From: a virus
Direction: 5' to 3' (one strand)
Length of the DNA stretch: 24,923 nucleotides
UHGV virus genome: UHGV-0143632
Shown: one piece after another, positions 9,545 through 10,605 of the stretch
Position numbering within the stretch: position 1 is the stretch's first letter
Layout of the letters: the number at the start of each line of letters is the position of its first letter
Made by a program: the position numbers and the translations under genes
The notes under the pieces: generated by a model
What the model was told of the DNA's origin: nothing
The model's database searches: none
The model's input: the letters and a program-made list of their open reading frames with translations, nothing else

Positions 9545-9665
9545 TATGCACCGTTTCGATATCCGGGGTGCTAATCCCGACGCCAGATTTTGCTGGCGTG
9601 CGAAGAATATAATCCCGGATATGTGTTGTCGTCAACATACCTTGAATGTATATAACAAATTTGTT

Positions 9666-10007
9666 ATGTTTACTCTCATAAACTACATTATCGAATACTA
9701 CAGTGACGAGGTTGAAGCTGAGATCCTTTCTCTTCCTGAGACCTTACAAGCCAGGTACATTCGGTACACGGAGAAAATGCGTATTTACGGAGCTAATCTT
9801 GGTTCCCCGCATACAGAGGCATTTGGCGACGGTTTGTTTGAAATCCGCCTTAAGGGCTCGGAAGGCATAGGGCGTGTTTTTTACTGCACGCTAAAAGGAA
9901 AGCGAATCATTATGTTGCATAGCTTTGTAAAGAAAACGCAAAAAACTCCACCTGCCGAGCTTAGAAAAGCTGAAACCAGAATGAAGGAGGTTAAGCATGA
10001 CTGGTAA
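9666..10007 (+). CDS. Type II toxin, RelE/HigB superfamily (phage gp49-like)
   Basis: 113 aa from the ATG at 9666; 3' end overlaps the antitoxin start by 11 nt; toxin-first order with an XRE antitoxin is typical of HigBA/gp49-type modules. Inverted repeat TGTTG-N4-CAACA upstream as a candidate operator. Confidence 0.65.
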   Translation: MFTLINYIIEYYSDEVEAEILSLPETLQARYIRYTEKMRIYGANLGSPHTEAFGDGLFEIRLKGSEGIGRVFYCTLKGKRIIMLHSFVKKTQKTPPAELRKAETRMKEVKHDW

Positions 10008-10305
10008 ACGTACCCCACCTACCATGACACACGATGAAATGGTAGAAAAAATGTTGTCTAACCCCGCAGTAAAAGCAGAATACGACGCCATCGCCGATGA
10101 ATTCGCACTACTTGATGAAATGCTGGCAGCACGAAAAGAAGCTGGCTTAACCCAGGCTGAAGTTGCTGAACGTATGGGAACAAAAGCGACTGCGATAACC
10201 AGAATGGAAAGCAATCTTGCATCAGGTACAAGCGGCCCATCATTTGCCACACTGAAAAAATTCGCCCGTGCTACAGGGAAAAAACTCCAGATCCGCTTCG
10301 TTTAA
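9997..10305 (+). CDS. XRE-family HTH antitoxin (HigA-like)
   Basis: 102 aa; HTH segment LTQAEVAERMGTKATAITRMESN; overlaps the upstream toxin gene. Confidence 0.7.
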   Translation: MTGKRTPPTMTHDEMVEKMLSNPAVKAEYDAIADEFALLDEMLAARKEAGLTQAEVAERMGTKATAITRMESNLASGTSGPSFATLKKFARATGKKLQIRFV

Positions 10306-10359
10306 CTCTCCACTACCGCGCCGTCATTCTGGCGGCGCTTTACCCCAGAGAAATATCAA

Positions 10360-10605
10360 TCACCGGATTACCACATCCCACTCCGGCTCCTGCCATCTCA
10401 AATCCGGTGAATCATTTCTCTCAGGAATAACCATTACGTCCTTTTCCCTTCGCTCCCTTTCTATCGCCATCACAGCCAATGCTGCAACCATGATGTATTT
10501 TTGTTCGTCGGTTCCTGTTTCATAACGACGCATGAGGGTAAACTCGGGGCGATCAGTAACCTCAATGATTTCGTTAATTTCTTTAATTTCGCGAGGAATA
10601 TCCAT
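10360..10605 (-). CDS. Hypothetical protein (81 aa, MDIPREIKEINEIIEV...)
   Basis: Start at the ATG at 10605 with a strong SD (AAGGAGA, 8-nt spacer). Its start codon overlaps, on the opposite strand, the start codon of the divergent gene at 10604 (shared CATG). Confidence 0.4.
   Translation of the reverse strand: MDIPREIKEINEIIEVTDRPEFTLMRRYETGTDEQKYIMVAALAVMAIERERREKDVMVIPERNDSPDLRWQEPEWDVVIR

Follow-up and report, generated by a model that had tools for sequence, protein, structure and literature searches.

A Gp49/Tad-Ata toxin-antitoxin pair opposed to the early-right genes of a probable lambdoid prophage, with a predicted leaderless toxin mRNA

Two small overlapping genes in the virus genome UHGV-0143632 are read against the direction of the early-right genes around them, and the questions raised by this locus are what the pair is, how it would be expressed and what it might do in a prophage. 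The window analyzed here is the whole stretch of 24,923 nucleotides, and all coordinates refer to it. The best explanation, to which we assign a probability of roughly 80%, is that the pair is a counter-oriented accessory ("moron") toxin-antitoxin (TA) cassette of the Gp49/Tad-Ata family that a lambdoid E. coli prophage carries in its early-right region. The pair is ordinary and already annotated (it is present in the RefSeq annotation, and an identical copy is found in Escherichia phage PhiR5_2, a phage for which the literature search gave no paper), and the locus itself adds little, since the family is well known, its structures are solved and routine annotation recognizes it. What is new is that the toxin mRNA probably has no leader and that the copy in the window has lost the usual toxin start codon.

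Identity and genomic setting of the pair

The pair and the elements that accompany it downstream of the toxin start are the following:

9678..10007, + strand: toxin gene of the Gp49/Tad family, by homology a HigB-like mRNase with a RelE fold; 109 codons, the first being ATA; predicted to be leaderless
9984..9990, + strand: Shine-Dalgarno sequence AAGGAGG of the antitoxin gene, read from the sequence, 6 nt 5' of the antitoxin ATG
9997..10305, + strand: antitoxin gene; HTH_3 match at residues 44-98 of 102 amino acids (E 3.6e-11, 43.4 bits); phrog_1373
10318..10338, + strand: terminator-like hairpin GCGCCGUCA-UUC-UGGCGGCGC, then UUUACCCC; dG -18.5 kcal/mol, z -5.8

The two + strand reading frames, with stops at 10007 and 10305, share 11 nt (9997-10007). 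A preliminary description had proposed a gp49/HigB-like toxin with an XRE antitoxin and suggested an HMM search, which confirmed the proposal. The toxin matched the Gp49/DUF891 model PF05973 with 94.2 bits (E 5e-27, profile positions 2-90 of 90; gathering score 23.9 bits), every one of its 2346 homologs carries PF05973, and it is 43% identical to gp49 of phage N15. The antitoxin, in which HTH_3 was recovered by the same search, can be assigned from its sequence to the Ata/HigA type (COG5606), being a small XRE/Cro-type helix-turn-helix (HTH) protein whose gene adjoins the toxin gene; it is 34% identical to N15 gp48, and its best match among PDB sequences is HigA (6AF3 chain B). The two chains of this Streptococcus pneumoniae HigBA complex are the best PDB sequence matches of the toxin and the antitoxin, respectively. 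The NCBIfam matches were sub-threshold only, namely TIGR02683 for the toxin (21.8 bits, cut-off 62.85) and the RstR, HipB and MqsA models for the antitoxin.

The AlphaFold2 model of the toxin (pLDDT 85.6) consists of beta1, two helices, three long antiparallel strands and then a helix at residues 92-107. The best Foldseek matches of this model were HigB of S. pneumoniae (6AF3/6AF4) and ribosome-bound HigB1 of Mycobacterium tuberculosis (7AWK/7NBU), with TM scores of 0.72-0.76. As modeled, the toxin combines the RelE/BECR fold with a long C-terminal helix, as is usual for Gp49-like toxins, the long alpha-3 helix of this group having been described previously (PMC9098466). Residues E55, R57, R66, F83, K85, Q88 and K89 (numbered from the start at 9678) are retained and, with the exception of Q88, are invariant across the aligned homologs. 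The first five align with E66, R68, R73, F90 and K92 of S. pneumoniae HigB, and the active-site residues also match E66, R68, R77, F93, K95, Q98 and K99 of M. tuberculosis HigB1 according to the sequence pattern and published correspondences (PMC9098466); functional data exist for the residues of both homologs (PMC7984235, PMC9098466). By homology the toxin would cut mRNA at the ribosomal A site. Expression of the Gp49-family toxins HigB2 and HigB3 of M. tuberculosis was not toxic (PMC9098466).

The toxin-first order, the C-terminal HTH of the antitoxin and the 11-nt overlap had all been pointed out in the preliminary description. Toxin-first order and an overlap recur in every related locus examined (the count for the overlap being 47 of 48 related loci), and whether or not the context is a prophage, the toxin and HTH antitoxin genes remain neighbors that overlap. 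The T/A gene order for gp49 is also given in PMC11980606. On this sequence evidence the two genes are a genuine type II TA pair of the Gp49/Tad-Ata family, which is a HigBA-like branch of RelE/ParE. The N-terminal part of the antitoxin would neutralize the toxin, and the antitoxin dimer would repress its own operon via the C-terminal XRE HTH. The earlier designation as HigBA-type suits the architecture but, judged by family profiles, fits only loosely: in the Pfam search the classical HigB profiles PF05015 and PF09907 did not match the toxin, for which PF05973 was the only model at E <= 0.01, and the toxin is a Gp49/Tad member outside the Rts1 and E. coli HigB Pfam families.

The hairpin behind the antitoxin gene, previously taken to be weak, is present and, with a 9-bp G+C stem, cannot be called weak; none of 200 shuffles folded equally well. 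Only its U-tract is short, which is why the consensus terminator scan did not call it. The terminator scan also gave two minus-strand terminator-like sites inside the TA pair (10096-10083 and 10277-10265), the second of which folds weakly (dG -6.2, z -1.1).

The pair is opposed to the minus-strand early-right genes (cro, cII, O-like, DnaC-like ... NinB, NinE, RusA, NinH). On its left are the isrK/C4 RNA region, an ORF6N/P22AR_C antirepressor gene and then NinB, and on its right a small minus-strand ORF, a + strand DUF4145 gene and DUF977; the pair thus runs opposite to the early-right operon as first reported, but its immediate neighbors are not both nin genes. The left-hand neighbors are:

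8686..9360, - strand: ORF6N/P22AR_C antirepressor-like gene, 3' of isrK-C4; ORF6N E 4e-21, P22_AR_C E 2e-7; phrog_377, anti-repressor Ant, E 1e-84
9414..9498, - strand: C4-type antisense RNA flanked by isrK and the antirepressor gene; match to Rfam RF01695 with 75.1 bits (gathering score 45)
9525..9599, - strand: IsrK-like sRNA with intrinsic terminator; full-length match to Rfam RF01394, 75.8 bits (gathering score 50)
9606..9635, - strand: divergent sigma-70 promoter TTGACG-18-TATATT that drives isrK; 10/12 consensus matches; a unit separate from the TA pair

The predicted start of the isrK promoter (~9599) is the 5' end of the Rfam isrK match, and an equivalent promoter, TTGATT-17-TACACT, was read from the sequence of the related locus L009. 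The IsrK sRNA heads an isrK-C4-antirepressor operon, whose promoter stands back-to-back with the TA promoter. A minus-strand terminator had been thought to bracket the TA pair on the left; it exists (9545-9523, with a stem at 9545-9530 followed by a T-run according to terminator scan and folding), but it belongs to the IsrK sRNA and not to the TA unit.

Position and orientation are those of an accessory cassette expressed in the lysogen, and the variable slot also occurs with other TA-like genes and DUF4145; since RelE/ParE-superfamily toxins have been discussed as defense toxins (PMC11980606), abortive infection or superinfection exclusion of other phages could be considered the main role of the pair. 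We regard this role as unlikely. In PADLOC-DB v2 no complete known defense system was matched, the toxin covering only positions 233-283 of the 293-position NsnC model and the antitoxin giving generic HTH matches only (capH, HTH_VI, RmrA). The literature search for Gp49 or Tad-Ata in phage defense gave nothing specific and no phage-challenge data for the family, most matches to "gp49" being unrelated phage genes. The function demonstrated for validated relatives is plasmid or prophage stabilization (PMC2701414), and the toxin start codon has been lost in the lineage of the window.

Start of the toxin gene

The toxin had initially been drawn from an ATG at 9666, which is very probably wrong, the family start being 9678 as judged by comparison with homologous sequences. 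At the column that corresponds to ATA 9678-9680, Met is found in 31/31 aligned homologs, and the toxin homologs, which are 107-111 amino acids long, all start at this column. The ATG at 9666-9668 falls within the conserved -10 hexamer and has no Shine-Dalgarno sequence, codons 2-4 counted from it are not conserved, and in-frame TAA or TGA codons lie between the positions of 9666 and 9678 in related loci (L009, L010, L013-16).

These observations make it quite unlikely that the pair is a fully active TA system that works normally in the prophage with a 113-amino-acid toxin made from ATG 9666. The frame from 9666 is open in this allele, every catalytic and invariant residue is intact, the ATG would be usable if some transcripts started further upstream, and PGAP draws the toxin as 9666-10007 in strain SCU-104; yet all homologs start four codons further on, and PGAP is itself inconsistent, giving one identical allele three toxin starts with products of 76, 113 and 153 amino acids. 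These current annotations are probably wrong for this allele, whose family start is the ATA at 9678. The internal ATG at 9777, from which PGAP derives the 76-amino-acid product, is preceded only by GGAG, 3 nt upstream. It was rejected as a functional toxin start; the product would lose beta1 and most of helices alpha1-alpha2.

ATA was found in all seven sampled loci of this lineage, other alleles having ATG (12 loci), and the nearest ATG allele differs at 3 of 713 nt. As far as can be read from the sequence, the window copy thus does not have the intact toxin translation start of a functional TA module, and with the family start codon mutated to ATA, toxin function in this lineage appears in doubt. 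Among 80 related loci the start position is GTG in 26 and GTA in one, so that non-AUG starts are tolerated in this layout in other taxa, and the ATA start might still permit some toxin synthesis. Leaderless initiation in E. coli is strongly AUG-dependent (reviewed in PMC9031893); the change from ATG to ATA would probably cut toxin synthesis strongly, with the antitoxin/regulator still being produced.

Promoter, predicted operator and relation to the antirepressor operon

The candidate control elements upstream of the toxin gene are:

9624..9637, no strand assigned: inverted repeat TGTTG-TCGT-CAACA, located 5' of the TA -35, with a right arm that shares bases with the isrK promoter -35
9642..9647, + strand: predicted -35 of the TA promoter, TTGAAT; TTG at fixed 17-nt spacing to the -10
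9652..9667, no strand assigned: 16-bp perfect palindrome ATAACAAATTTGTTAT, predicted operator; fills the promoter spacer and overlaps the -10
9665..9670, + strand: -10 of the TA promoter, TATGTT; 7 nt 5' of the family start codon, invariant in enterobacterial alleles

The promoter TTGAAT-17-TATGTT is predicted solely from comparative conservation and was not called by a simple consensus promoter scan of the window. All loci from E. coli, Salmonella, Edwardsiella, Photorhabdus, Methylospira and Sphaerotilus have TTG exactly 17 nt 5' of the -10. From the -10 to the start codon there are 7 nt in all enterobacterial prophage alleles and 6-7 nt in other genera, the intervening sequence being variable. 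Of the 50 loci with an ATG start, 45 have a TAnnnT hexamer ending 5-8 nt ahead of the start codon (14% of shuffles), and 33 have both the -10 and the -35 (0.8% of shuffles). A second candidate promoter, TTGTCG (9626)-17-TATATA (9649), was rejected because its spacing is broken by 4- to 7-nt insertions in other alleles, the spacing of TTGAAT-17-TATGTT being kept everywhere.

Shine-Dalgarno motifs were found at none of 50 toxin starts and at 47 of 48 related antitoxin starts, and the first 63 nt of the predicted toxin mRNA were unstructured when folded. Since the promoter ends 7 nt before the toxin codon and a Shine-Dalgarno sequence is absent, the toxin mRNA is predicted to be leaderless, with a transcription start at ~9677-9678. 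Transcription would hence begin at the toxin start codon or 1 nt before it, the toxin would be weakly translated from this leaderless mRNA, and the strong Shine-Dalgarno sequence of the antitoxin would hold the antitoxin in excess despite the toxin-first order.

The 8+8 perfect palindrome at 9652-9667 has a probability of P = 0.014 in dinucleotide shuffles of the 132-nt intergenic region. Of the ATG-start loci, 38/50 have its core, TAAC-N6-GTTA, at -23 to -27 relative to the start codon, as compared to 0.01% of shuffles, and variants of the core are altered symmetrically in both arms (TAGC/GCTA, TACC/GGTA). This conservation makes the palindrome a likely operator for the antitoxin or the TA complex and a far better candidate than TGTTG-N4-CAACA, for which an autoregulatory role had been suggested before. 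The latter repeat is indeed present at 9624-9637 and is invariant in a group made up of the window, L002-L004, L006, L008 and L011, but the L009, L010, L012 and L013 alleles lack it, as do other genera, so that its conservation is limited to a subset of the E. coli alleles. A dinucleotide shuffle of these 132 intergenic nucleotides is expected to hold 1.3 inverted repeats with 5-bp arms, and the repeat is therefore not beyond chance; as it also overlaps the isrK -35, it was rejected as the main operator. The antitoxin would instead bind ATAAC-N6-GTTAT in the spacer of the module's own promoter, TTGAAT-17-TATGTT. The layout of promoter, palindrome and start codon was observed repeatedly, in about 80 loci from Proteobacteria and Nitrospirae. 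Related genomic loci number at least 578.

About 75 nt separate the TA start from the 5' end of isrK, and the two -35 elements are about 6 bp apart, which raises the possibility that the TA pair is coupled to the isrK-C4-antirepressor (P1 immI-like) operon, such that the antitoxin or the TA complex controls the antirepressor or the toxin acts as a fail-safe. Prophages that differ in backbone share this layout (L002, L003, L008, L009, L012, L013/14), and Rha, Ant or P22AR genes together with an sRNA-Xcc1 element occur nearby in Edwardsiella and Methylospira. A dedicated coupling of this kind is nevertheless very unlikely, given that the conserved palindrome lies within the TA promoter and not within that of isrK, that two genes separate the TA pair from the RNA region in L004, L006 and L011, and that the pair occurs without such a neighbor in Photorhabdus (beside sbcB) and Sphaerotilus (in a Mrr/PIN island). 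Prophages of E. coli O157:H7 moreover carry other TA-like cargo in the same slot adjacent to isrK, as would be expected of a common hot-spot for insertion more than of a dedicated partner. In lambdoid prophages, those of O157:H7 included, counter-oriented TA cargo appears to be swapped at the slot beside the isrK-C4-antirepressor promoter, which bears on how prophages exchange accessory or stabilization genes.

For the preferred reading, an accessory TA cassette, a more specific proposal is offered tentatively and as a whole, all of its parts together being possible but doubtful. The toxin:antitoxin ratio might be set throughout the subfamily by an unusual and deeply conserved design, with a leaderless toxin mRNA that would start at the start codon and with TAAC-N6-GTTA as spacer operator; in enterobacterial prophages the unit might form a coupled control region with the isrK-C4-antirepressor promoter to which it stands back-to-back; and the ATG to ATA change in the window lineage might be a natural "toxin-down" allele. 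This proposal would hold for hundreds of loci in taxa that range from Enterobacteria to Betaproteobacteria and Nitrospirae. The predicted leaderless and weakly translated toxin, the strong antitoxin Shine-Dalgarno sequence and the predicted spacer operator together suggest, from the comparative data, a way for a toxin-first operon to keep a surplus of antitoxin. Leaderless genes are rare in E. coli, and a conserved leaderless toxin, if true, would therefore be a useful model.

That the genes encode a two-protein pair of phage transcription regulators and no TA system is extremely improbable: the second gene has a generic XRE HTH, its best PHROG is labeled "transcriptional regulator" and all NCBIfam matches fall under the curated cut-offs, but the first gene is a clear Gp49 member with a RelE fold and with every residue on which RNase activity or toxicity depends in two homologs that have been studied, and each gene has its match in one chain of a solved TA complex.

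Comparison with known systems

The closest relatives are the Tad-Ata systems (N15 gp49-gp48, tad-ata of Paracoccus plasmid pAMI2, SXT), which combine a COG4679/DUF891 toxin with a COG5606 HTH antitoxin and of which N15 gp49-gp48 is a validated example (PMC2701414, PMC5906591). The pair in the window shares with them PF05973, the toxin-first overlapping genes and an antitoxin whose C-terminal XRE HTH follows an N-terminal extension, and like the N15 pair it is carried by a temperate phage. N15 gene 49 differs in that it has an ordinary Shine-Dalgarno sequence (AGGAGG) and lacks a TAAC-N6-GTTA palindrome directly 5' of it, whereas the subfamily in the window is predicted to be leaderless with an operator in the promoter spacer, and the window copy starts with ATA.

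HigBA of S. pneumoniae (6AF3/6AF4) is the best match by PDB sequence and by fold (TM 0.72-0.76), its active-site residues E66, R68, R73, F90 and K92 corresponding to E55, R57, R66, F83 and K85 in the window, and its antitoxin binds palindromes in its own promoter (PMC7984235). It differs in being chromosomal in a Gram-positive organism, with ~19% identity over the fold alignment, in having four palindromes of another consensus and in D61, which is replaced by G50 in the window. HigB1 of M. tuberculosis (Rv1955), the toxin of the TAC system (7AWK, 7NBU), has the Gp49-like fold with the long C-terminal helix (TM 0.75) and the catalytic motif F-x-K-x-x-Q-K, seen in the window as F83-V-K85-K-T-Q88-K89, and its mechanism as a ribosomal A-site mRNase is established (PMC9098466). 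In contrast to the module in the window, which has no chaperone gene, TAC is tripartite and requires a SecB-like chaperone; the identity is 17-18%.

The classical HigBA systems (HigB of Rts1/Proteus, PF05015; of E. coli K-12, PF09907; HigB2 of V. cholerae, PF06296) likewise place a RelE-superfamily toxin upstream of an XRE-HTH antitoxin, with a weaker fold match (5JAA, 9CHL, 5IXL). They belong to other Pfam families (tabulated in PMC11980606), none of which is matched by the toxin in the window, so that "HigB-like" denotes architecture and not membership. Finally, in paaR2-paaA2-parE2 of the E. coli O157:H7 prophage CP-933P, paaR2 was found to be leaderless by 5' RACE and N-terminal sequencing (PMC8630535). 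This is likewise a prophage-borne TA operon with a leaderless first gene, as is predicted for the window, but it comprises three genes including a ParE toxin, it is sited in the immunity region, and its leaderless gene encodes the regulator and not the toxin.

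Family and setting of the gene pair

The window represents a lambdoid prophage of E. coli, and its region 9300-10600 was matched at 100% identity by E. coli SCU-104 and NCTC9112. The gene pair and its surroundings comprise the following features.

Gene pair, right flank and early-right genes
within 9546-10360, + strand: two ORFs with ends at 10007 and 10305 (ORF reading)
10318-10338, + strand: hairpin with a short U-tail after the antitoxin stop (dG -18.5 kcal/mol, z -5.8)
early-right genes, - strand: cro, cII, O-like, DnaC-like, DUF1627, DUF977, NinB, NinE, DUF1364, RusA, NinH

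The two ORFs share 11 nt. Since the early-right genes all lie on the minus strand the pair is counter-oriented, as the preliminary description had stated; the hairpin it had called weak is not so by folding energy and z-score. The toxin was assigned to Pfam Gp49 (PF05973, E 5e-27), HTH_3 covered residues 44-98 of the 102 of the antitoxin, and the best PDB sequence matches of the two proteins were two chains of one complex, the S. pneumoniae (Sp) HigB/HigA (6AF3). Identities to phage N15 proteins were 43% for the toxin (gp49) and 34% for the antitoxin (gp48), both placed in the Tad-Ata group, COG4679/COG5606 (Makarova et al. 2009, PMC2701414; Armalyte et al. 2018, PMC5906591). In a survey from 2025, PF05973 goes under 'gp49, tad, HigB1, HigB3'; its activity is entered there as mRNA degradation dependent on the ribosome, and its gene order as toxin then antitoxin (PMC11980606). 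Because the toxin had no match to the classical HigB Pfam families, 'HigB-like' is an architectural description only, and the precise family is Gp49/Tad-Ata.

The AlphaFold2 model of the toxin (28 homologues, pLDDT 85.6) was structurally closest to Sp HigB (TM 0.72-0.76) and M. tuberculosis (Mtb) HigB1, including the ribosome-bound 7NBU (TM ~0.75). The toxin has the residues whose equivalents Sp HigB and Mtb HigB1 require for toxicity or RNase activity (E55, R57, R66, F83, K85, Q88 and K89, numbered from a start at 9678), and all except Q88 are invariant in the aligned toxin family.

The Pfam and 6AF3 matches bear out the core of the earlier call of a HigBA-type module: this is a genuine Gp49/Tad-Ata (HigBA-like) toxin-antitoxin (TA) module, an uncharacterised member recognised already by automated annotation. 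RefSeq labels it 'type II toxin-antitoxin system RelE/ParE family toxin' and 'helix-turn-helix domain-containing protein', and Escherichia phage PhiR5_2, which encodes the toxin at 100% protein identity, has HigB/HigA as its annotation. The evidence spoke neither for nor against a role of the pair in phage exclusion, PADLOC returning no system-level match. The module is scarce, with at least 80% of it found in ~30 of 5426 complete E. coli genomes. What the present analysis adds is a corrected start, a predicted leaderless toxin with a candidate operator in the promoter spacer, an arrangement conserved family-wide, a start-codon mutation of the lineage, and the identity of the neighbouring isrK-C4-antirepressor unit.

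Probable toxin start, promoter and operator

The preliminary description and the RefSeq pipeline PGAP had both placed the toxin start at 9666. In an alignment of 31 homologues (typically 107-111 aa) Met opened every sequence at the column of Ile (ATA, 9678-9680) in the window. The ATG at 9666 falls within an invariant TATGTT, and in other E. coli and Salmonella alleles its equivalent is excluded as a start because an in-frame TAA or TGA comes after it; a start at 9666 is therefore very probably wrong. PGAP gives this same toxin allele three lengths in different genomes (231, 342 and 462 nt, i.e., 76, 113 and 153 aa; related loci L001 and L017-L021, same allele as window 9546-10007), the PhiR5_2 annotation using the 76-aa version, and these three starts are a symptom of the absent canonical start codon.

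All alleles have the arrangement TTGnnn-17 nt-TATGTT-7 nt-ATG, with ATA as the last element in the window lineage. The 7-nt stretch is fixed in length and varied in sequence (TACTCTC, GATACCT, TTAACTC, CATTCTC, TTGAGTC, TATCACC), and none of the alleles has a Shine-Dalgarno (SD) motif there. The layout recurs in Photorhabdus, Edwardsiella, Methylospira and Sphaerotilus. For comparison 80 loci (L030-L109) from one-genome-per-species contigs were used, the statistics being calculated on the 50 with ATG at the aligned start and compared with shuffles.

Motifs before the start codons
TAnnnT ending 5-8 nt before the start: 45/50 ATG-start loci, 14% of shuffles
TAnnnT plus TTG 16-18 nt upstream of it: 33/50 ATG-start loci, 0.8% of shuffles
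SD motif before the toxin start: 0/50 ATG-start loci, 7% of shuffles
SD motif before the antitoxin start: 47/48 loci

This layout suggests a toxin mRNA with no leader, or with one of 1 nt. The predicted mRNA shows no structure in its first 63 nt, which fits the leaderless reading. Another 26 loci carried GTG and one (L048) GTA at the toxin start position, all with the SD-less layout unchanged. Weak start codons are thus tolerated by the layout in other members of the family, and in Betaproteobacteria and Nitrospirae they would have to be used on a leaderless mRNA.

The ATA was present in 7/7 sampled loci of the window lineage (SCU-104, PhiR5_2, UPEC-245U, S1-CAM-02-A, SW070917, DETEC-S792, NCTC9112) and ATG in 12/12 loci of other alleles. 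The nearest ATG allele (strain G1/2) had 3 differences in 713 nt: 9680 G/A, one synonymous change and antitoxin E14D. Because leaderless initiation in E. coli is strongly AUG-dependent (PMC9031893), toxin synthesis from the ATA allele is expected to be much reduced, with the tolerance of GTG and GTA starts in the family as a reservation. Antitoxin synthesis should continue, its ATG being preceded at 6 nt by AAGGAGG.

A perfect palindrome of 16 bp, ATAACAAATTTGTTAT, takes up the promoter spacer at 9652-9667 (P = 0.014 in dinucleotide shuffles of the intergenic region). Its core, TAAC-N6-GTTA, lay 23-27 nt before the start codon in 38/50 loci vs 0.01% of shuffles, and the exceptions included symmetric double changes (TAGC/GCTA four times, TACC/GGTA once), the pattern that a site recognised by a dimeric HTH protein would show. 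The same symmetric variation of the core (TAAC/GTTA, TAGC/GCTA, TACC/GGTA) was seen across L030-L109. The operator proposed earlier, TGTTG-N4-CAACA, does exist at 9624-9637, but 1.3 repeats of this kind are expected per shuffle, and it was absent from more diverged alleles and other genera, so it is not the primary operator candidate.

The isrK-C4-antirepressor unit and a probable cargo slot

Left neighbours of the pair
9635-9606, - strand: isrK promoter TTGACG-18-TATATT (promoter scan)
9612-9560, - strand: a1/b1 target sites (Rfam)
9599-9525, - strand: isrK (Rfam, 75.8 bits)
9498-9414, - strand: C4 antisense RNA (Rfam)
8686-9360, - strand: ORF6N/P22AR_C antirepressor gene, after C4

The left terminator of the preliminary description is indeed a terminator, but it belongs to the IsrK-like sRNA. 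The predicted start of the TTGACG-18-TATATT promoter is the isrK 5' end, and its -35 overlaps the right arm of TGTTG-N4-CAACA. Two promoters thus lie back to back in the intergenic region. In E. coli C5 (L010, about 980-1500) a ~450-bp insertion separates isrK from the TA promoter, and the block of -35, palindrome and -10 by the toxin is unbroken despite it. Tandem isrK-C4 copies occur in related loci, two in L009 and three in L012.

Several prophages of differing backbone have the TA pair beside isrK-C4 and a gene of the Rha, Ant or P22AR type, which would favour a functional coupling of the pair to the isrK-C4-antirepressor unit. However, Photorhabdus and Sphaerotilus have a chromosomal pair without an isrK-C4 or antirepressor neighbour, two genes lie between the pair and the isrK-C4 region in the group of Stx phage 75/02, and in O157:H7 prophages the slot by isrK is occupied by a ParD-like gene, a hypothetical gene, a 71-bp remnant (scar) of the antitoxin 3' end and a HigA-family gene. 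The link is therefore not obligatory and coupling has a low probability; in our reading, counter-oriented cargo collects at this slot as at a hot-spot, and a dedicated partnership is the less likely view. The 71-bp piece (window 10237-10307, L022 2501-2571) recurs at ~95% conservation, without annotation, in many prophages of O157:H7 and other STEC. It is flanked there by a ParD-family antitoxin and a hypothetical gene on one side and the HigA-family gene on the other, by isrK-C4-ORF6N, and has the look of a scar left by recombination where TA cargo is exchanged.

Several side observations concern other parts of the window and a related locus. A second counter-oriented early-right gene (10604-11278, + strand) encodes a DUF4145 protein (Pfam E 4.7e-9; phrog_1305 'DNA binding protein'; weak PADLOC match to PD-T7-4, E 0.0026), and a small ORF of the minus strand (10360-10605, phrog_8371) directly adjoins its start. 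The STnc100 sRNA family is represented by two full-length copies (5095-5304 and 5580-5773, - strand; Rfam RF02076, 130 and 139 bits), with the Q-like region on one side and the lysis genes on the other. An Edwardsiella prophage has, besides the first Gp49-HTH pair, another and different one (L025, 4278-4929, - strand) at a distance of 1.4 kb and in the opposite orientation, with DUF4160 and DUF2442 genes in between.

Comparison with known systems

The isrK-C4 RNA region, P1 immI-like and Gifsy-1 isrK-like (9414-9612, - strand), lies directly upstream of the antirepressor gene and with it resembles the isrK-orf45-anrP locus of Gifsy-1 (PMC4825925). In S. pneumoniae, HigA and the HigBA complex bind to palindromes of the promoter that drives them (PMC7984235); the palindrome found here is a candidate operator from sequence. 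A precedent for a leaderless gene in a prophage-borne TA operon is E. coli paaR2, for which 5' RACE together with N-terminal sequencing demonstrated the lack of a leader (PMC8630535).
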